Source of the DNA: a virus
Length of the DNA: 64,000 bases
Reading direction: 5' to 3' (one strand)
Virus record (IMG/VR): IMGVR_UViG_3300009509_000014
Location: 9,904 to 73,903 of that record
A model generated the notes under the pieces. That model was not told the origin of the DNA and did not search any database. It worked only from the letters and a program-made list of their open reading frames with translations. Positions 1 through 10,726 of the stretch are shown here, piece after piece. The position numbers and the translations under genes were made by a program. The stretch's first letter is position 1. The number at the start of each line of letters is the position of its first letter.

Positions 1-275
1 TTTTCGGTAACAATGTCGGCATAATTAACAGCGGTCCCAACCTCCTTTGCGAAAACCTCTGGCCGAGCGTCTTCTAGGAGCTTTAGACTTTGTATCACAA
101 GGTCAAGATATACCACTGCACTGCATGTTGCAATAATCCCTTTAGACGCAGGGTTCTTTACAAGGACTCCCTTCGTGGGGGCAAACACTGTGGATTTGTC
201 ACTTGAATACGAAAAGTAGGACGAAGGACTTATCCAACCTAGATCATACAGCAGTGGCTTCTGTGTCGTTTCCAT
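1..275 (-). CDS. Hypothetical protein, runs off the window edge (METTQKPLLYDLGW...); next gene of the Ubl operon
   Basis: Manual translation gives a frame open from ATG 275 to base 1. GGAGGTG SD upstream; overlaps the stop of the protease gene. Not in the ORF track. Confidence 0.7.
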   Translation of the reverse strand, partial: METTQKPLLYDLGWISPSSYFSYSSDKSTVFAPTKGVLVKNPASKGIIATCSAVVYLDLVIQSLKLLEDARPEVFAKEVGTAVNYADIVTE

Positions 276-1848
276 CACCATCACCTCCAGTGTCTATTTC
301 TTCGGCTATTGCATTGTCGGCCCCATTGTCTTTTCCAGCCGCCTGTGTATCCGCAGGTTTCTTGCCGTCATTAAACTCCCTGATCTGTGTTATTAATCCC
401 TTTGGGTGAGTCTCTTCATTTTTAACGTATGTCAAAAGTTCCCGCCTTTGCACAAATAAACATTCGGGACACACATAATTATACCCCCCTCCCGCTTGAT
501 AGAAGTACAAGGGGACATTGTGCTTGGAACAGATAAAATACGTTGACTCTACGTGCAGCCTTGCATTGAACCCGCATGAGCTATCAATACATATTCCATT
601 GGCTAGAGCCGAGTAACACATTGGGCAAACTTCCGAAATGCCTGCCTGTACTTCTTCTTCAACCTCAAACCAATCGCAGGCCAAACAATATGCTGTTCCG
701 TCAAGCTCTACAACCATGCCTCCGCACTTCCCACAGGCGGTGGATCTCCTTACCGCAGTAGACGTACTTTTTGAACTTTGGACAGTGGTGGCCGGAGTAA
801 CTTCTTGCCTATGAACGGCGCTGGTCGCAGCATTCTTGGCCGTCCTTCTTGCATTGTCCCAGGCATTCAGCGTTTTACCTCCAACACGCGATGACCAGAT
901 AGAGAATTTCCTTTGGACAGAACTTGTTTCTTTCGACTCTCCTGGGAATGCCACTTTTGCGTTTGAGTATCTGTTAATAGACACCCCATTTACTTCATTG
1001 TATTCAGCTAGAGGTCCAAGCTGAAACGCAATCTTCCAGTTTTTAGGAACTGAGTCTCTTGGACCAATAAAGTCTGCATGGCCCACTCCACTTGTCGTTG
1101 AAGACCATTGACCCTTTACTGTAGTCCCACCAGATTTTTTCACCTGGGCAGAACTTGACATCATAACTACGCATGGGACCATTGGTGGTTCGTCAACAAA
1201 CTCAAACCGGAGAGTGTCACGAATCATCTTCGCTTCTGGACCGTTTGGATCAAAACCCATAGCGTCTATGAAGTCATCATTCGATGCGCCGTAAGTTTGC
1301 AGTGCCAGTGGATTTATTCCCAATGCTTGTGCAAATTCCTTTAGCTGATCTCCAAGAGTTGACATCTTTGGAACATAAACCTTGGTAATTCCCTTGCCCC
1401 AAGGGACTGCAAGCCCGTGAGCGACAGCCAGAACATTTGCCTTGTTAACTCCATCAGAGTTCACCCTTGGGTGCTGCTCAAACCAATACTTGTCTCCAGG
1501 GGTGAGTGTCCCAAGGCCAAGTGCCTCCAGGTACTTTTTCGTGGCGTCATATACACAACTATTCACATGATAATGATATGTTGTTGACGTAAACCCATCT
1601 CCCCCTGGATCGACCTTCCATACCGGAAGCTTCTTGTCTCCGGTTGTCATTTCTGGCTCTACGTTCCCAAGAAGGGATTCGGCGGCAAATTCACTAATTT
1701 CGTGCATTGTGCCATTATTGTCGATCAGGTAACCTCCTGGCTCTTTTTTGACCGTGCCAGCAGTTGCTTTGAAAAATTGTTTTGCCACAACCGGAACAAG
1801 TCCGGTTTGCCCCTTGCCATCACCTTTACTTGTCGGAATTAGGGACAT
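244..1848 (-). CDS. Putative papain/OTU-like cysteine protease (candidate Ubl-deconjugating enzyme) with three C-terminal zinc ribbons
   Basis: Cys motif HVNSCVYDA and downstream His motif SGVGHADF (H-x-D). C-terminal CGKC/CLAC, CPMC/CIDSSC, CSKH/CPEC pairs. Start moved to ATG 1848, which has an AGGAGG SD. Confidence 0.55.
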   Translation of the reverse strand: MSLIPTSKGDGKGQTGLVPVVAKQFFKATAGTVKKEPGGYLIDNNGTMHEISEFAAESLLGNVEPEMTTGDKKLPVWKVDPGGDGFTSTTYHYHVNSCVYDATKKYLEALGLGTLTPGDKYWFEQHPRVNSDGVNKANVLAVAHGLAVPWGKGITKVYVPKMSTLGDQLKEFAQALGINPLALQTYGASNDDFIDAMGFDPNGPEAKMIRDTLRFEFVDEPPMVPCVVMMSSSAQVKKSGGTTVKGQWSSTTSGVGHADFIGPRDSVPKNWKIAFQLGPLAEYNEVNGVSINRYSNAKVAFPGESKETSSVQRKFSIWSSRVGGKTLNAWDNARRTAKNAATSAVHRQEVTPATTVQSSKSTSTAVRRSTACGKCGGMVVELDGTAYCLACDWFEVEEEVQAGISEVCPMCYSALANGICIDSSCGFNARLHVESTYFICSKHNVPLYFYQAGGGYNYVCPECLFVQRRELLTYVKNEETHPKGLITQIREFNDGKKPADTQAAGKDNGADNAIAEEIDTGGDGDGNDTEATAV

Positions 1849-2566
1849 CAGAAACCTCCTTCTGGCCACTTGTTCCTGTTATGCACCGTGCCGTTGTATT
1901 GATTCTGCCGTCGCCAATACCAACTACCCAATTCACCATGTCTCCGTTCTCGGCAACCCTTCCGCGATCTTGATAGACGATTCCGACAGGATCGTGACCA
2001 CTGATATAGATGAAGATTGATATTGCAGCACATTCTGTCACCAAGGCAGAAAACACCCGCGTTGCAACAAGCGCACAGGCAGGTTCCTTTTCCTCAGACA
2101 CCTTGTAGTCCTTCGCGATTCCTGTAAATGGCATGGTTACAACGTCTCCGTGCGACCACGACACAACCCCTCCAACCTGTGATAGACCAAGGTCGATGTA
2201 TGGAATGCCATATTCTTGCGACGCCTGTAGGAGTAGCTGCCTTGATGGAACATTGTCAAGCGCACCAACAATCAGCGTATGACCCTTCACGATCCACAGG
2301 TTCTTCTCTGTGATTCTCACTCTCTGGACCTTGACATTAAGACCAGCGGCTTCATAGACAGGCGCAAGGATGTCAGCCTTGTTCTTGCCGATGCTCGCGG
2401 GAACTCCGAGATTCCCTGGCGAGTTCCGTTTCTCAACCTTGTCAAAGTCAACAAGGGTTACTCCAAACGGAACATCGAGAGAGGTCGAGAAAGCGCATAG
2501 AGGGCTAGCGATCATGGAGCCTAACAATCCAGCGCCTACTATCAAAATGTTGTTCCCATTTACCAT
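1826..2566 (-). CDS. ThiF/MoeB/E1-family adenylyltransferase
   Basis: ILIVGAGLLGS nucleotide-binding loop, LVDFDKVEKRN, GKNKA, GALDNVPSR, IPYIDLG, and candidate catalytic Cys in EPAC. Confidence 0.92.
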   Translation of the reverse strand: MVNGNNILIVGAGLLGSMIASPLCAFSTSLDVPFGVTLVDFDKVEKRNSPGNLGVPASIGKNKADILAPVYEAAGLNVKVQRVRITEKNLWIVKGHTLIVGALDNVPSRQLLLQASQEYGIPYIDLGLSQVGGVVSWSHGDVVTMPFTGIAKDYKVSEEKEPACALVATRVFSALVTECAAISIFIYISGHDPVGIVYQDRGRVAENGDMVNWVVGIGDGRINTTARCITGTSGQKEVSDVPNSDK

Positions 2567-2567
2567 A

Positions 2568-3758
2568 TCATCCTCCTATCGTAATTGGCGGGTATAGTTG
2601 GCCAATCTGTTTAGACTTCGACCCAGGACTGACGCCATGAACCAGTGCGTACATTTGCTTCTTGTGGAGCGACACACCCATCGTCTGATATTTTGGAGAT
2701 TCGCAAGTGCATCCATAGACCGAATATGGGCAGTACGGATCGCCACATTCGCATACATTTTGAACGGACTTTCCACATTTCACGCACATATTTTTCCCCG
2801 CTATGTCGTATGTAGAATTTGTACTACTGCACTTTGCGACAGGACACTTCCCGTATGGCTCATTTAGCATCATACCACACTTCGCACAGTACAGGCCAAT
2901 CATCCCATACGGAGTTACTCCGGAAATAGCATTGGCCATAGCTGTTAGAATTGGTACGGATGCAAGCGGGTTAGAACTTTTCTTTTCTGGCTTGAATATC
3001 TGTCCAAAATCTCCAAAAACGTCTTTGCCTTGCCGCTTTAGCCAGAACAGCCTCAGTGAAGTCGTTGCCCATGTTCCTACAGTTTGGCCTTGTGTCATGG
3101 ATGCAATTCGGATATCCTTGTTATTGTACGAACCGTACCCTTCGCGCTGGCACCAATACGAACAGACAAATCCAGTTGGATAAGGGAATTCCTTTGGAAT
3201 CTTCCGATATCTTGTATGGAAGCCATCCCACATTGGCTTCGTTAGCCAGTGAACAACATTATACCCTGGGTATAATGGATCAAGTCCCTTGATATCGAAT
3301 ACGGTTGCAACCACAAGCCCCTTGTAGACAAGTGGCTTTCTGAACATTGCGCCGATGGCGTCTGCAGTGTTTTCCATACGACCGTCAGACAGGTAATAAA
3401 TGTACCGAATTGAGTTACCCCTGATAGTAACGGCGTTGCCGAAATAGCGTTGCAGATCTCGCAGGACCATTCGCCGCTCAGCCGATTCGTCCCAAAATTC
3501 CTGTGGCTTGATCACTGGTTTCACCCAGGTATTGTCGTGGTTAACATGGCCAGTTCTAGACCTCATTTCCCTCATAATTCTTAACTGGAGATCTTTATCA
3601 TACGTCACAAACTTTTGCGAAGCATCGCCAGTATTAGGGTCGTATACATGAAGCCTTAGTCCATGACGCCCCCCAAAAACGGTTACGTTATCAAGCACCT
3701 TGTTTTTCTCTGTATCGTAAAGCCTTGTTGTTGGCCCATCATTCAATGTGACAAGCAT
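2568..3758 (-). CDS. Putative E2 (UBC-fold) conjugating enzyme with C-terminal Cys-rich zinc-binding region
   Basis: LDPLYP..VVHWLTKP...FH...TGFVCS parallels the E2 pattern PxxYP..P.v.F.T..fHPN...G.iCl. Eleven Cys in the C-terminal ~65 aa. AGGAGGTAAG SD. Confidence 0.55.
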   Translation of the reverse strand: MLVTLNDGPTTRLYDTEKNKVLDNVTVFGGRHGLRLHVYDPNTGDASQKFVTYDKDLQLRIMREMRSRTGHVNHDNTWVKPVIKPQEFWDESAERRMVLRDLQRYFGNAVTIRGNSIRYIYYLSDGRMENTADAIGAMFRKPLVYKGLVVATVFDIKGLDPLYPGYNVVHWLTKPMWDGFHTRYRKIPKEFPYPTGFVCSYWCQREGYGSYNNKDIRIASMTQGQTVGTWATTSLRLFWLKRQGKDVFGDFGQIFKPEKKSSNPLASVPILTAMANAISGVTPYGMIGLYCAKCGMMLNEPYGKCPVAKCSSTNSTYDIAGKNMCVKCGKSVQNVCECGDPYCPYSVYGCTCESPKYQTMGVSLHKKQMYALVHGVSPGSKSKQIGQLYPPITIGG

Positions 3759-3777: not shown

Positions 3778-3813
3778 ATAAAAAAGGCCGAGAGTGGCAG
3801 TCCACTCTCGGCC
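3778..3813 (-). terminator. Intrinsic terminator after the Ubl gene
   Basis: Perfect 12-bp stem GGCCGAGAGTGG/CCACTCTCGGCC with a 4-nt loop, followed by TTTTTT on the minus strand. Confidence 0.85.
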
Positions 3814-3854
3814 CTTGTGCTGTGTGTTCTGCCGCAGGCTCAGGTCAACTGCGT

Positions 3855-4313
3855 CTAGCCAAACGGCGCAGCGGCCAGCACATGCCATTCCACCCCGTCG
3901 TTCGGGATCACCACCATCTGCGGAGTGAGGTCGCCAGCCGCGATGTAGAAGTGGTCTGTCCCAGGGTCCTGATCGCTGATCACGAAGCTGTGTTCCTTCA
4001 CCAAGTAGTTGCAGGTCGCGTCCACGATCCGCTGAGGGAGCGGCTTCGAGCTTGATGCCAGAAGATCGGCGGTGAGCTTCCCCATCGCTGCCTGCAGCTT
4101 CGCCGCGTTACCAGCCGCGCCGAGAGCTTTCAGTTCGTCAAAGTTTGGCGGAGCAACGTCTGCGACCTTCTCGCCATACTTGTCCAGGAACTCTGCCAAC
4201 CCGCCGCGATAGTCAACCTGCCGTGTTGCGCGGCCTCCAGCACTCGTTGTCTTCGCGCCCGAAATAATAACCGAAATCTGATCGGACGCTCCTACTGTCA
4301 ATTCTTTTGCCAT
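3855..4313 (-). CDS. Putative ubiquitin-like beta-grasp protein (MoaD/ThiS/CysO/SAMP-like) with an internal helical insertion and C-terminal Gly
   Basis: N-terminal ISVIISGAKTTSAGGRATRQVDYRGGLAEFLD and C-terminal PNDGVEWHVLAAAPFG* resemble the two ends of CysO/MoaD (e.g. DGDSVTILPAVAGG). Same operon as E1. GGGAGGT SD. Confidence 0.65.
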   Translation of the reverse strand: MAKELTVGASDQISVIISGAKTTSAGGRATRQVDYRGGLAEFLDKYGEKVADVAPPNFDELKALGAAGNAAKLQAAMGKLTADLLASSSKPLPQRIVDATCNYLVKEHSFVISDQDPGTDHFYIAAGDLTPQMVVIPNDGVEWHVLAAAPFG

Positions 4314-4384
4314 GTTGTACCTCCCGTATACAGGAATTTTTGACGGGCCGAATCACAAAATGTCTGTGACCCGCCCGACTGTAT

Positions 4385-4413
4385 ATTATACTGGAATTGT
4401 CTAACTTTGTTGA
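4385..4413 (-). promoter_or_regulatory. Conserved phage promoter, copy 1 (drives Ubl)
   Basis: TCAACA-AAGTTAGACAATTCCAG(17)-TATAAT. Confidence 0.8.
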
Positions 4414-6540: not shown

Positions 6541-7513
6541 TTGTCAGTATTCCTTTCGCCTTATCATACATGGCCGAAAGCACTTCGTCTTTACTTATGT
6601 ATTCATATAGATTTGTGCGACCATGAAACTTCTCCCCGTCTACCTCAAACCACGAACCACTTTGACTTATCAGCCCAAGTGAAATTCCAGCGTCGATAAC
6701 GCTTTCTACCTTGTCAAAGCCAACACCAAAGTTCAATCGCAGATCGGCACTCCTGAATGGAGTAGCTAGGGAGTTTTTCTTTATTGTAACCCTTACAATT
6801 TGTCCGGTTGGATCTCCGCCAGATGTTGTTAATGTTTTTATCCTTCTCATGTCTATACGGAGTGATGCGTTATGCCGAAGCGCCCAACCTCCAGGTTGTG
6901 TTTGTTGTGGCCCCATAGCCAAACTCCCCATGCCGCCAATCTTTGAGCGTATTTGGTTCACAAAAATAACAGTTGCGTCATTTGCCTTCATAGAGTGAAC
7001 CATTTGTCTTAGGTTTTGCGACAAGATTCTAGCTAGTAGTCCAACAAATTGATCTCCGGTAACACCCTCCCATTCTGCCTTTGGGACAAGGGACGGAACG
7101 CTATCTATTACAACTAGCCTCACTCCGCCTTTTATTAGTGCGTGGCAGACATTTAGTGCGGCTTCCCCATACGGCGGTTGTGTAAAATACATTCTGTCAA
7201 GATCGACCCCAAGCGTTTCCGCCCATACAGGATCGATACGATGTTCCATATCAATGTACGCAGTCTCCAATCCGTGACGCTGAGCCTGCGCTATAAGCTG
7301 CAAGCATAGCGTTGTTTTCCCGACACCTTCCGGTGAGTAAACTTCTACAAAATACCCAAGCGGAATTCCACCAATTCCTATTGCAAGGTCTAGTTGCAGT
7401 AGGCCAGTGGGGATATAAGGCACTTGGGCGACTTCATTATCACCCAAATGCCCTATAAAGATGTCGTATTTCTTGGCAAGTTCGCTTGCCACGGCATCTA
7501 TCCCTTTTGCCAT
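6500..7513 (-). CDS. recA: RecA recombinase
   Basis: IPTG..LDLAIGIGGIP, SPEGVGKTTL, VVIDSV, IFVNQIR.KIG, PGGWAL. Confidence 0.97.
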   Translation of the reverse strand: MAKGIDAVASELAKKYDIFIGHLGDNEVAQVPYIPTGLLQLDLAIGIGGIPLGYFVEVYSPEGVGKTTLCLQLIAQAQRHGLETAYIDMEHRIDPVWAETLGVDLDRMYFTQPPYGEAALNVCHALIKGGVRLVVIDSVPSLVPKAEWEGVTGDQFVGLLARILSQNLRQMVHSMKANDATVIFVNQIRSKIGGMGSLAMGPQQTQPGGWALRHNASLRIDMRRIKTLTTSGGDPTGQIVRVTIKKNSLATPFRSADLRLNFGVGFDKVESVIDAGISLGLISQSGSWFEVDGEKFHGRTNLYEYISKDEVLSAMYDKAKGILTSGNKDDVPDGEDS

Positions 7514-7524
7514 TTACCTATCCT

Positions 7525-7911
7525 TTACAGAGGAAAATCGTCGTCTTCAAAAACATCCGTGCTTGAACTTACAAGACTTTCATCCACTGATGATTCAGAA
7601 CTGCTACCTTTTGGATCAAGGAAGATAACGCTATTAGCAATAATCTTTAGAGTTGTTCTGCGCTTCCCATCATCGCCAACCCAGTCATCCTGATCGATGC
7701 GTCCGGTAACAGCGACGCGAGAACCTTTCTTTGTGTACTTGTTTACTAATTCTGCCAACTTGCCCCAAACAGAAACGTCAAACCACAATGTCTTCTCTGG
7801 TGCAACTTGTACAGCAAATCGAAAAGACGTTACCGCACTTTCATTAGACAGAAACTTCATTGACGGATCGACTCCCAACCGTCCGGTAAAACTAACTGCA
7901 TTTAAGTCCAT
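7525..7911 (-). CDS. ssb: Single-stranded DNA-binding protein
   Basis: GRLGVDP, WF.V..WGKLAE, KG..V.V.GR, acidic tail EDDDFPL. Confidence 0.95.
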   Translation of the reverse strand: MDLNAVSFTGRLGVDPSMKFLSNESAVTSFRFAVQVAPEKTLWFDVSVWGKLAELVNKYTKKGSRVAVTGRIDQDDWVGDDGKRRTTLKIIANSVIFLDPKGSSSESSVDESLVSSSTDVFEDDDFPL

Positions 7912-8141
7912 TCTATGTCTCCATTTATAATTGTTAATCTTAAATCTATCATATCTATTGAAGCCTTTGAGTAGAACAATGGCGACTGCCCTGCTGGCTT
8001 CTCGGCACGACAGTTGCTATAATACTTACATGGAATTATACTATTATATCTTCTGCATGTCAAACATGACTTTGCTGAGATTGCTTCCGCTATGCTGCTG
8101 TAGGCCACAATTGGCCTGCCATTTAGATATCCAAGGCGCAT
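7902..8141 (-). CDS. Hypothetical Cys-containing protein
   Basis: Overlaps both neighbours in the operon; CxxC..C...C. Confidence 0.6.
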   Translation of the reverse strand: MRLGYLNGRPIVAYSSIAEAISAKSCLTCRRYNSIIPCKYYSNCRAEKPAGQSPLFYSKASIDMIDLRLTIINGDIEWT

Positions 8142-8428
8142 TTTGCCTCTCCGTCGTATTCATATCCATACATTTTTTGTAATTTTGAAAGCAGTTCTTT
8201 CCGGCCAGCATCGTTATGTACTTCCCCGTGGCACTTTCTGCACAGGCATACCCTATTTTTGATTGCGAATAGCTCTAACCGTCGCAGTGGCCCAAAGTGA
8301 GACTTAGGAATTATCTCATGAACGTCATCCGCGAGTCTACTGCACCGAACGCACCGGACTTTACCTTCAAGGTCGGTGTCTCTTGCTATTACCAGATAAT
8401 AAGTCGCTGCATCTTCTGGCTCTCTCAC
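8123..8428 (-). CDS. HNH endonuclease
   Basis: CVRC...DVHEI...N...LCRKCH..VH. Confidence 0.85.
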   Translation of the reverse strand: MREPEDAATYYLVIARDTDLEGKVRCVRCSRLADDVHEIIPKSHFGPLRRLELFAIKNRVCLCRKCHGEVHNDAGRKELLSKLQKMYGYEYDGEAKCALDI

Positions 8429-8691
8429 AAATATTCGCTCTCTATGCCAAACCTGCCAATTACTTCTCTTGCCCTTGCGGCAGGATGAAGTTTCTCCGAT
8501 CTGTCAAGCATTTTATATAATAACGCACATGATTCAAGATGCTCACATTCAACACAGAATGTGCTACCTATAAACTCTTTCGTAGAAATTCCTAGCCAGC
8601 AATTCAAGAGGCGTATATTGGCAACTGCTATCTTCCTTGCCGCCTCTTGCTCTGCAATCGGTAATAAGAGTTGTTTATTTTCATCATCCAC
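8425..8691 (-). CDS. Hypothetical protein (CxxC)
   Basis: Probable GTG start overlapping the nrdJ stop; stop overlaps the next ATG. Confidence 0.6.
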   Translation of the reverse strand: MDDENKQLLLPIAEQEAARKIAVANIRLLNCWLGISTKEFIGSTFCVECEHLESCALLYKMLDRSEKLHPAARAREVIGRFGIESEYL

Positions 8692-10726
8692 ATTTACTGT
8701 ATCCGCAGATTGCACAAGTAGAACATCCTCCCTGATAGTTTAGCTCTCCACTGCACTCTGGACACTTTGCTGCTGTTGTTTCGTACCTGCTAAGTGTTTG
8801 CGCTATAAGCGCGGGAATGCTAGTGACCGATTGCCCCTCAATCTTTCTCAGTTGTTCGATTATCTTTTCCAGTGGCGCACCAACACGCAGGGCCAAACTG
8901 GAGAGCCTTGTGACTGCTGTAACCAATTGCAATTCTTTTAGCGACCTTATATAAGGAGTGTTTACAAATACTTCCCACGGTCGCTTGCCATCTATTGTAT
9001 TTACAGTTATGTACAAATTTGTACTTTCACCTTCAATATTGCCAACTACCTTGTATGTATCGCCAGATAGAACCGCAGGTCTTGCTAACAACTCTGCCTC
9101 TTCAACGCGGGATGTGTATTCGGACGACAAAACTTGCCGAGTCCTAGAACCGTCTCTGTACACAGTACATCCATTACACCCCTTATCGTAAGCATAAAAC
9201 AGTACATTAAGAACATCTTCTACCGTTGCGTTGTTTGGCAAATTAACCGTGTAAGATATACTGGTATCGACGTATTCAGAAAATGCGGCAACCGTGTCAA
9301 TAACTGCTGACCAGGGAAGATCGTATAGTGTTACAAATCCATCTGCTCCAGCAAGATTGTGTAAGATTGTGTATTCGCCTGTCCTATCACTCCGCTTTGT
9401 TATTGCACTAAAGATTGGTTCTATGCCAGCCGAACAACCGGCTAGAAGGCTAATCGTGCCAGTTGGAGCAATTGATAACAAGGCATTATTTCTCCTACCG
9501 TTAAAGTCTCCATGTGTTCCCGATCCCTTTTCCATCATTAGGGTTTTGCTTTCGTCTTCTGCGACTTTCATCAGCAGTTGCGCGATCCAGCCAGCCTTCG
9601 CTACGGCCTCAACAGAACCATACTTGTGTCCCATCTTAATAAGAGCATCAGCGAATCCCATAATGCCTAGCCCTATTGACCTGTTCCTGTACGACCAAGC
9701 CGCCGTTGCCGATGTCGGGAATTCGTTTAATGTAATCATGTTGTCAAGAAATCTAACTGCTACCCTTATAACTCTCTTAAACTCTTCAATGTCAATATAT
9801 CCTAGCTCATCGACGAATTCCGATATATTTATGCTCCCAAGACAGCAACTCCCGTTTGGTGGAAGTGGTTGCTCACCACACGGATTCGTGGCCTGAATCA
9901 ATGACGGATCATATTTTGTGCGCCTGCGAATCGTGTCAATAAACAGAACACCAGGCTCTCCATTCTCCCACGCCCCGTTTGCAATAGCTGTTAGAGTTTC
10001 CCGTTCTTTAGTGTCTATATGTGAAGCATTTTGCATAAACTCGTCAGAAGCCAACACGCTCATGTTAAAGTTTGACAGATATGTCTCCGATGCGGCTAGG
10101 ATTGCACGGTCCTGCAGTAGTTGTTCGGCAACACCTTTTGGGTTGTCTGTAATCCTATTGAGATTTAGTAATTCGATTACGGAGTTTACTGGGGACTTTG
10201 CGGTAATGAAATCCACAATATCTTTATGGGAAGCATCCATAGTTGCCATACAGGCAGCGTCACGGAATCCACCCTGCGTCATCGTAAGCATGTCGTATGA
10301 AAATGTCTTCCAGAATCCAACAGGCCCTCCAGCGATACCGTGGGTTGAACCGCGGACTGGAGATCCAGCAGGCCGAAGGTTTGAAAGGCCAATGCCCCAA
10401 CCCCCTCCAGATTTCGTGATTGCCATAGCGGTAGCCTTGGCCTCTGCGATTGAATCCAGGTTATCTTCTAGTCCTATAACAAAACACGCGAACAAACCCC
10501 CTCCGTGTCCAGCGTTTACAAGGCATGGGCTATTCGGCAGAAATTTACCAGACGCCATTACTTCGCGGAATATTAGCTTCCAGTCAGAACGTAGTCCATC
10601 CTCTTCTGTCTCTGCGGAAGCTATAAATGACGACACTCTATCAAGGAGTTCGTCTGGTGTGCTTTCGCCATTACGGTAATATCTTTTTGCAAGAATGCTC
10701 TTTGCCATTTCTGTTTCAGCGAACAT
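8684..10726 (-). CDS. nrdJ: Class II (adenosylcobalamin-dependent) ribonucleotide reductase with TSCPD-like C-terminal domain and zinc ribbon
   Basis: FLPNSP, ACFV, GGGWG, NFNMS, GEPG, TNPCGE, IAPTGTIS, TVYRDGSR, terminal CPEC...C..CGYSKC. No beta-subunit gene nearby. Confidence 0.93.
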   Translation of the reverse strand: MFAETEMAKSILAKRYYRNGESTPDELLDRVSSFIASAETEEDGLRSDWKLIFREVMASGKFLPNSPCLVNAGHGGGLFACFVIGLEDNLDSIAEAKATAMAITKSGGGWGIGLSNLRPAGSPVRGSTHGIAGGPVGFWKTFSYDMLTMTQGGFRDAACMATMDASHKDIVDFITAKSPVNSVIELLNLNRITDNPKGVAEQLLQDRAILAASETYLSNFNMSVLASDEFMQNASHIDTKERETLTAIANGAWENGEPGVLFIDTIRRRTKYDPSLIQATNPCGEQPLPPNGSCCLGSINISEFVDELGYIDIEEFKRVIRVAVRFLDNMITLNEFPTSATAAWSYRNRSIGLGIMGFADALIKMGHKYGSVEAVAKAGWIAQLLMKVAEDESKTLMMEKGSGTHGDFNGRRNNALLSIAPTGTISLLAGCSAGIEPIFSAITKRSDRTGEYTILHNLAGADGFVTLYDLPWSAVIDTVAAFSEYVDTSISYTVNLPNNATVEDVLNVLFYAYDKGCNGCTVYRDGSRTRQVLSSEYTSRVEEAELLARPAVLSGDTYKVVGNIEGESTNLYITVNTIDGKRPWEVFVNTPYIRSLKELQLVTAVTRLSSLALRVGAPLEKIIEQLRKIEGQSVTSIPALIAQTLSRYETTAAKCPECSGELNYQGGCSTCAICGYSKCG

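Follow-up and report, generated by a model that had tools for sequence, protein, structure and literature searches.

The protein P0001, encoded on the minus strand of the 64,000-nucleotide stretch of viral DNA analysed here (the window; positions 9,904 to 73,903 of IMG/VR record IMGVR_UViG_3300009509_000014), is proposed to be a cysteine-dependent transfer enzyme that would do the work of an E2 in a ubiquitin-like (Ubl) pathway encoded by the phage, with C203 as the carrier residue, a reading to which we give a probability of about one half. The family of P0001 is unnamed and characterised by an invariant W-C-x-R motif, and the P0001 gene is located between the gene for a candidate Ubl tag with a conserved glycine end and the gene for a minimal ThiF-type E1. 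A first-pass annotation of the same DNA had described P0001 as an E2-like domain fused to a possible E3 tail. Its candidate active-site cysteine is now replaced by another, four residues further on, its possibly RING-like tail is now predicted to be a double zinc ribbon, and the label "E2-like" rests on gene context and not on homology. The gene is divided as follows.

2568-3758, minus strand: P0001, the open reading frame under study, with an ATG start and 396 amino acids; unnamed family, invariant W-C-x-R motif.
3552-3758, minus strand: beta-rich N-terminal domain, residues 1-69, present in the close clade only; in the full-length model residues 1-70 form a block with pLDDT 75-95.
2973-3551, minus strand: conserved core, residues 70-262, modelled as a helix, an antiparallel beta-meander, a Cys loop and a helix.
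3162-3164, minus strand: codon of C199, the catalytic candidate of the first-pass annotation; not conserved, inside a beta-strand in the model.
3150-3152, minus strand: codon of C203, the candidate active-site residue; Cys in 36 of 36 aligned sequences, in a loop three residues after strand 196-200.
2745-2888, minus strand: conserved part of the Cys-rich tail, C291 to C338, with two four-Cys sites predicted to form a double zinc ribbon (alignment; Pfam DZR, DZR_2 and Zn_Ribbon_1).
2703-2744, minus strand: three extra cysteines, C343, C350 and C352, in the closest clade only.

The open reading frame, its ATG start, its strand and its length of 396 codons are as first described, the codon at 3162-3164 does encode C199, and the spacing of the tail cysteines was reproduced verbatim (C291xxC294-x10-C305-x4-C310-x14-C325xxC328-x7-C336xC338-x4-C343-x6-C350xC352). 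The gene is real, as it has relatives in the databases and encloses one contig from an RNA library. Among 1.84 billion cluster representatives a profile search found only 35 related proteins, 12 of them close and full-length and about 20 more distant. In the distant relatives similarity is confined to residues 70-250 or so and is carried by the motifs SDG..TPDAI, P.IY.G.AW and SDWC(E/Q)RNG, and their N-termini differ from that of P0001. The core of P0001 has the motifs Y122-x-S124-D125-G, P142-x4-G147 and W202-C203-x-R205. The family is rare, derived from metagenomes and viral in every locus inspected. P0001 falls into no named family of Pfam, PHROGs, PADLOC or NCBIfam, and no Pfam domain was detected in the 10 distant members scanned. 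Nucleotide and protein searches of 50,697 phage records gave no match to the cassette DNA, to P0001 or to one distant relative, pattern scans of viral and genome collections for the distant group found nothing, and the ESM Atlas, whose models of P0001 and of the tag P0004 are poor, gave no usable lead for either protein.

In an alignment of 36 sequences, which includes relatives of about 20% identity, C203, R205 and G147 are invariant and Y122, S124, D125, P142, W202 and W230 are nearly so. The cysteine previously favoured as catalytic, C199 in the segment TGFVC, is not supported by this alignment: among 20 full-length members position 199 is occupied by Cys in 9, Ala in 9 and Phe in 2, and in the distant W-C-x-R group it is Ser. 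In the model C199 lies within a strand and not in the loop that follows it, and thus away from the position of a UBC active site, whereas C203 is an invariant cysteine in the loop into which the final strand of the meander leads, as would be expected of an E2. The HPN motif is absent from P0001, as is the conserved His found near the Cys in E2s of the bacterial type; the conserved neighbours of C203 are W202 and R205. H32 and H181 are nearly invariant, but within the close clade only, and neither the 36-sequence alignment nor the distant group contains a His conserved family-wide, which argues against reading P0001 as a Cys/His hydrolase. A Cys loop of the rhodanese or PTP type was also considered and rejected, as the residues that follow the Cys are wrongly spaced for it and no fold of that kind turned up.

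The full-length structure model of P0001 is mediocre (pLDDT 72), whereas the core model built on the 36-sequence alignment is confident (pLDDT 87.6, pTM 0.84). It begins with a short strand and a helix of 18 residues, after which come two very long strands; another short strand, an inserted helix and a further strand lead to the Cys loop, which is followed first by a short and then by a long helix. In this model the order helix, beta-meander, Cys loop, helix appears to match that of UBC-type proteins; compared with UBC domains, however, the modelled strands are far longer and a helix seems to be inserted before the last strand. Foldseek searches with the P0001 models gave no match at E<=0.001 in PDB or BFVD, and in the fold comparison of the core, proteins of the cystatin-like and NTF2-like types, built on the helix-plus-meander layout as well, come out level. 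At the sequence level P0001 did not match E2 profiles at E<=1 in Pfam (including UQ_con and Prok-E2_A-E), at E<=0.1 in PADLOC (E2s of the BilB and Cap2 type) or at E<=0.1 in NCBIfam, and none of the 36 family members matched an E2 model at E<=10. An E2-like nature can therefore not be read from the sequence, as had been attempted. Because a true UBC domain that is so well modelled should score clearly higher, membership of the core in the UBC superfamily is unproven and rather unlikely, the modelled layout staying compatible with an E2-like arrangement. The broader proposal, that P0001 is a cysteine enzyme working with an E1 and a Ubl, draws support from a gene order kept across very distant phages, but it gains none from sequence or fold matches to E2s.

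The first eight of the 11 tail cysteines are conserved among the 20 full-length members, C291, C294, C310, C325, C328 and C336 being invariant and C305 and C338 present in at least 90%. Zinc-ribbon models of Pfam (DZR PF12773, DZR_2 PF18912 and Zn_Ribbon_1) are matched by 10-11 of the 36 members with a best E-value of 4.2e-4, while P0001 itself does not match the double zinc-ribbon models at E<=1. It had been remarked earlier that the spacing is not that of a canonical RING, and this holds; the idea of a RING-like domain does not, and the tail is predicted to be a double zinc ribbon, an accessory module outside the catalytic core. A RING was rejected because the tail has no His ligand and no cross-brace spacing: its ligands are cysteines only, arranged in successive CxxC/CxnC pairs, and the matches in Pfam are to zinc ribbons instead. 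Among the 25 of 50 Pfam families listed there was no match of the zf-RING or zf-C3HC4 type, and two members match PHD weakly. A profile search of PDB sequences with P0001 returned zinc-ribbon noise only, the weak tail rows being ribosomal or RNA-binding ribbons. Most distant relatives are devoid of such a tail; two of them (P0027 and P0043) terminate in a Cys-rich segment.

The record is a 73.9-kb virus contig estimated to be about 60% complete. Long open reading frames on the plus strand occupy 18-57 kb of the window, one of them coding for 1941 amino acids, and are taken to be structural genes. On the minus strand, 0.2-17 kb holds a block for replication and nucleotide metabolism in which a sliding-clamp-like protein, RecA, SSB, HNH, a class II ribonucleotide reductase, dUTPase and DNA methylases were recognised from the translations. 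At the end of this block four tightly packed minus-strand genes form a cassette in the order P0004, P0001, P0002, P0003. The cassette and its surroundings comprise the following features.

4385-4413, minus strand: sigma-70-like promoter match upstream of the tag gene, 10 of 12 positions.
3855-4313, minus strand: P0004, candidate ubiquitin-like tag, 152 amino acids, with the invariant end ...AAAPFG and G152 in 15 of 15 sequences.
3783-3816, minus strand: terminator-like hairpin between the tag gene and P0001, a 15-bp GC-rich stem followed by a T-run.
1826-2566, minus strand: P0002, minimal ThiF-type E1, 246 amino acids (Pfam ThiF 4.7e-17; PADLOC BilD 1e-7).
244-1869, minus strand: P0003, candidate Cys/His peptidase, 541 amino acids, with invariant C105 and H264.
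1-284, minus strand: 5' end of a gene for a 475-amino-acid protein of no known family, located after the cassette and extending beyond the window (positions 8760-10187 of the full record, G000).

The order tag, W-C-x-R protein, ThiF protein, large Cys/His protein is found in the window and in three other loci, L001 (a 37-kb IMG/VR contig), L002 (a 22.8-kb metagenome contig) and L003 (a 194-kb jumbo-phage contig), and the W-C-x-R protein of L003 is a distant relative with only about 20% identity over the core. Gene order itself is known from these four loci; in seven further cases, judged from contigs of identical size, the W-C-x-R protein and the E1 were placed on one contig, in two of them together with the tag. 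Directly upstream of its cassette, L003 possesses two extra, shorter paralogues of the Cys domain at 7789-8724 (TDYCERE) and 8714-9364 (STWCQRC), recognised with hhalign probabilities of 95% and 89%, and both retain the Cys. One genome can carry several E2s, and for this reason the expansion is counted in favour of an E2 role. The 475-amino-acid gene is conserved in L001 and L002 and not in L003, and its product could be the target or an additional, fifth component restricted to the clade. Beyond it, upstream of the window, the translation indicates a CCA-adding enzyme or poly(A) polymerase-like gene with an HD domain (G000 6915-8378, minus strand). When the E1 served as sole query, two distant ThiF genes were found in phage records. 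The ThiF locus of Virus Rctr197k (L006) was examined as a possible instance of the cassette and rejected, its gene set being different and including no W-C-x-R protein; the ThiF gene there adjoins a tRNA cluster.

The conserved glycine at the end of P0004 is followed by 1-3 extra residues in 3 of the 15 tag homologues, the L003 protein ending in ...AVWG-K and the precursor of the L001 type in ...PFG-HAA. An invariant Gly with or without a short extension is the pattern of a Ubl that is made mature or needs trimming. P0004 gave no match to ThiS or ubiquitin, a ThiS-family match is absent from the whole phage record, and the tag would be expected to adopt a beta-grasp fold. P0002 is an E1 consisting of a single adenylation domain with a Gly-rich loop and the conserved residues D40, D42, R47-N48, K63 and D104-N105..R109. 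Its C164 is invariant and aligns with the Cys of the PxCT motif of UBA1 and UBA6, whose adenylation domains are its best solved relatives; it scores equally well against ThiF, MoeB, Uba4 and TcdA. A complex prediction for the E1 and P0001 returned "no answer" with a score of 0.00, which is neutral on binding.

In P0003 and its relatives an invariant Cys opens a helix-like segment and an invariant G-H-A motif is present, which fits a papain-like peptidase as a candidate function. The protein matched no family in Pfam, PHROGs or NCBIfam and nothing in a profile search of PDB sequences, and for this reason we infer the peptidase activity from these residues. There was no JAB/JAMM match among the cassette proteins, the place of such a peptidase being taken by P0003. 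Its listed GTG start overlaps the E1 gene by 44 nt (1826-1869), and translation may in fact begin eight codons further on, at an in-frame Met near 1848. P0003 has three zinc ribbons at its C-terminus, together with an acidic tail. In the window, L001 and L002 both P0001 and P0003 possess ribbons of this kind, and in L003 neither does; this joint presence and absence across loci, the sole basis of the proposal, suggests that the two proteins may bind a common partner through their ribbons. A BLASTP comparison of the P0001 tail with the P0003 tail gave no significant similarity.

Equivalents of the hairpin between the tag gene and P0001 stand at the corresponding place, just past the tag gene and ahead of the gene for the W-C-x-R protein, in the other loci as well (L001 5881-5994, L002 5912-6000 and L003 9949-10000), and the hairpin has the look of a conserved attenuator that would keep the tag in large excess over the enzymes. 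In metatranscriptome assemblies from four runs of two studies, contigs for the tag gene are confined to 3810-4370, a span made up of this gene and its leader: they begin at 4344-4370, about 15-40 nt downstream of the promoter-like site, and end at 3810-3841, at the hairpin, and one of them has an Illumina adapter at 4370. One low-depth RNA contig lies inside P0001 (3422-3637). The rest of P0001 and the whole of the E1 and peptidase genes had no RNA cover in the four runs, which is not evidence of silence. As the data are contigs and carry-over of DNA is possible, this layout is only a weak hint that the tag comes from a short, abundant transcript and the enzymes from read-through. All or nearly all of the phage DNA (share 0.97-1.00) was recovered in DNA runs from six studies, whose samples are recorded as marine sediment, mangrove, sludge and unspecified metagenomes.

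In the pathway that we propose, P0004 would be made in excess from its own short transcript and would either end in a free Phe-Gly or be trimmed to Phe-Gly by the Cys/His peptidase P0003. P0002 would then adenylate the terminal Gly of the tag and probably load the tag onto C164. From there the tag would move to C203 of P0001, placed within W-C-x-R in the loop after the last core strand, and P0001 would hand it to a target. The double zinc-ribbon tail might serve as an accessory module that binds the tag, the target or nucleic acid. A more far-reaching version can be offered tentatively and with clearly less confidence than the transfer role itself: the W-C-x-R core would be a non-UBC fold that arose independently as a Ubl carrier and represents a second, virus-borne class of "E2", the phages would tag host or phage proteins and possess a papain-like eraser, and the zinc ribbons of writer and eraser would bind the same partner.

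Two other interpretations of the cassette are improbable to a similar degree. According to the first, it is a sulfur relay in which the Gly-ended protein is adenylated by the E1 and thiocarboxylated, as in the cases of ThiS, MoaD, TtuB and Urm1, while C203 carries a persulfide or thiolates a tRNA, a DNA base or a small molecule and the ribbons bind nucleic acid. The E1, being as near to ThiF, MoeB, Uba4 and TcdA as to UBA1 and UBA6, would suit such a relay, as would the CCA-adding enzyme gene close to the cassette and the fact that zinc ribbons commonly bind nucleic acid, the ribosomal and RNA-binding ribbons among the weak PDB rows pointing in the same direction. However, no rhodanese, PP-loop thiolase or cysteine desulfurase was found in the 74-kb record, which is about 60% complete and could draw on host enzymes. 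Known sulfur carriers have about 70-100 amino acids and a Gly-Gly end, unlike the tag with its 150 amino acids and Phe-Gly end, and the conservation of a large Cys/His protein in the gene set also speaks against a relay.

According to the second interpretation, the E1 transfers the tag directly and P0001 is not a carrier but a preferred target, a scaffold or a specificity adaptor in which C203 has a structural or regulatory role. Some E1/Ubl systems do work without an E2, for example archaeal SAMP/UbaA and Thermus TtuB/TtuC; P0001 has no detectable relationship to E2s, and its N- and C-terminal domains vary by clade in the manner of binding modules. Against this, a single Cys and a nearby Arg are invariant in 36 very divergent sequences, which indicates chemistry and not scaffolding, the conserved S-D-G and P-x4-G motifs of the core likewise point to chemistry, and the paralogues of the L003 expansion retain the Cys. 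Least probable is that P0001 is another kind of cysteine hydrolase or transferase acting on the tag or its conjugates, such as a second deconjugase, an amidase or a transglutaminase-like cross-linker: the invariant Cys does adjoin the conserved D125 and R205, and the close clade has its nearly invariant H32 and H181, but no His is kept family-wide, neither sequence nor fold gave a papain-like or transglutaminase match, and the cassette already contains a better Cys/His candidate in P0003.

To our knowledge, ubiquitin-like conjugation in prokaryotes has so far been characterised as anti-phage defence of bacteria (Bil, Bub and type II CBASS). Here such a kit is owned by a phage, and the proteins in the carrier and peptidase positions belong to no named family. 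Judging from the contigs of RNA libraries, in which carry-over of DNA is possible, the tag is apparently expressed in nature. If C203 carries the tag, the range of E2 chemistry would extend to a protein that has no recognisable UBC signature, and a tractable system of four proteins would become available in which the targets of a viral tag could be sought. Should C203 turn out not to carry the tag, the family remains a conserved and uncharacterised partner of a minimal E1.

A literature search found no paper describing this cassette. The closest known systems include Bil (BilABCD), bacterial operons for ISG15-like conjugation that correspond to class 6d of Iyer et al. (2006) (PMC1779556; PMC11601596), and type II CBASS, in which Cap2, an E2-E1 fusion, is accompanied by Cap3. 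For phages, the account of Iyer et al. (2006) is limited to the lambda-type TAPI/TAPK pair (PMC1779556). It has been proposed that the E2s of Bil recognise targets themselves and need no E3 (PMC11601596). The cassette resembles Bil in having four genes, a Gly-ended tag, a ThiF-type E1 that matches the PADLOC model BilD at 1e-7, a Cys protein in the place of the E2, a peptidase candidate and no separate E3. It differs from Bil in that it lies in a phage replication module and not in a bacterial defence island, in that the E1 is a single 246-amino-acid adenylation domain with neither an inactive domain nor a mobile Cys domain, in that the peptidase candidate is of the Cys/His type and not a JAB protein, and in that the middle protein matches no BilB or E2 model. 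With Bil, Bub and type II CBASS together the cassette has in common that a ThiF-type E1 adjoins a Gly-ended tag and a Cys protein with a predicted carrier role, whereas its peptidase candidate is neither a JAB/JAMM enzyme nor, as in Bub, a DUF6527 serine protease, and its genes lie on a virus contig, among those for RecA, clamp, SSB, RNR and dUTPase, and not in a bacterial genome or defence island.

The tail of P0001 has the successive CxxC...C-x(2-4)-C and CxxC...CxC sites of Pfam DZR and DZR_2, to which, unlike these models, the clade of P0001 adds three more cysteines. Ubiquitin-like pathways of the Atg8, Atg12 and UFM1 type combine tags with aromatic- or aliphatic-Gly ends with small non-canonical E1s, atypical E2s and papain-like processing peptidases. 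An aromatic-Gly tag, sometimes with a short tail, is shared with UFM1/Uba5/UFC1/UfSP and with Atg8-Atg12/Atg7/Atg3-Atg10/Atg4, and by analogy the small E1 with a Cys inside its adenylation domain, the carrier-position protein that has no HPN motif and the papain-like processing candidate might be likened to these pathways as well. A functional analogy may also be drawn to the E2/E3 hybrids UBE2O and BIRC6, since in P0001 a carrier Cys and a substrate-binding part would share one polypeptide; unlike these, P0001 has no UBC match and no RING, HECT or RBR element. What sets the cassette apart from its closest relatives among known systems is its location in a phage genome, its minimal E1, its non-JAB peptidase candidate and a protein in the carrier position that is devoid of an E2 signature.
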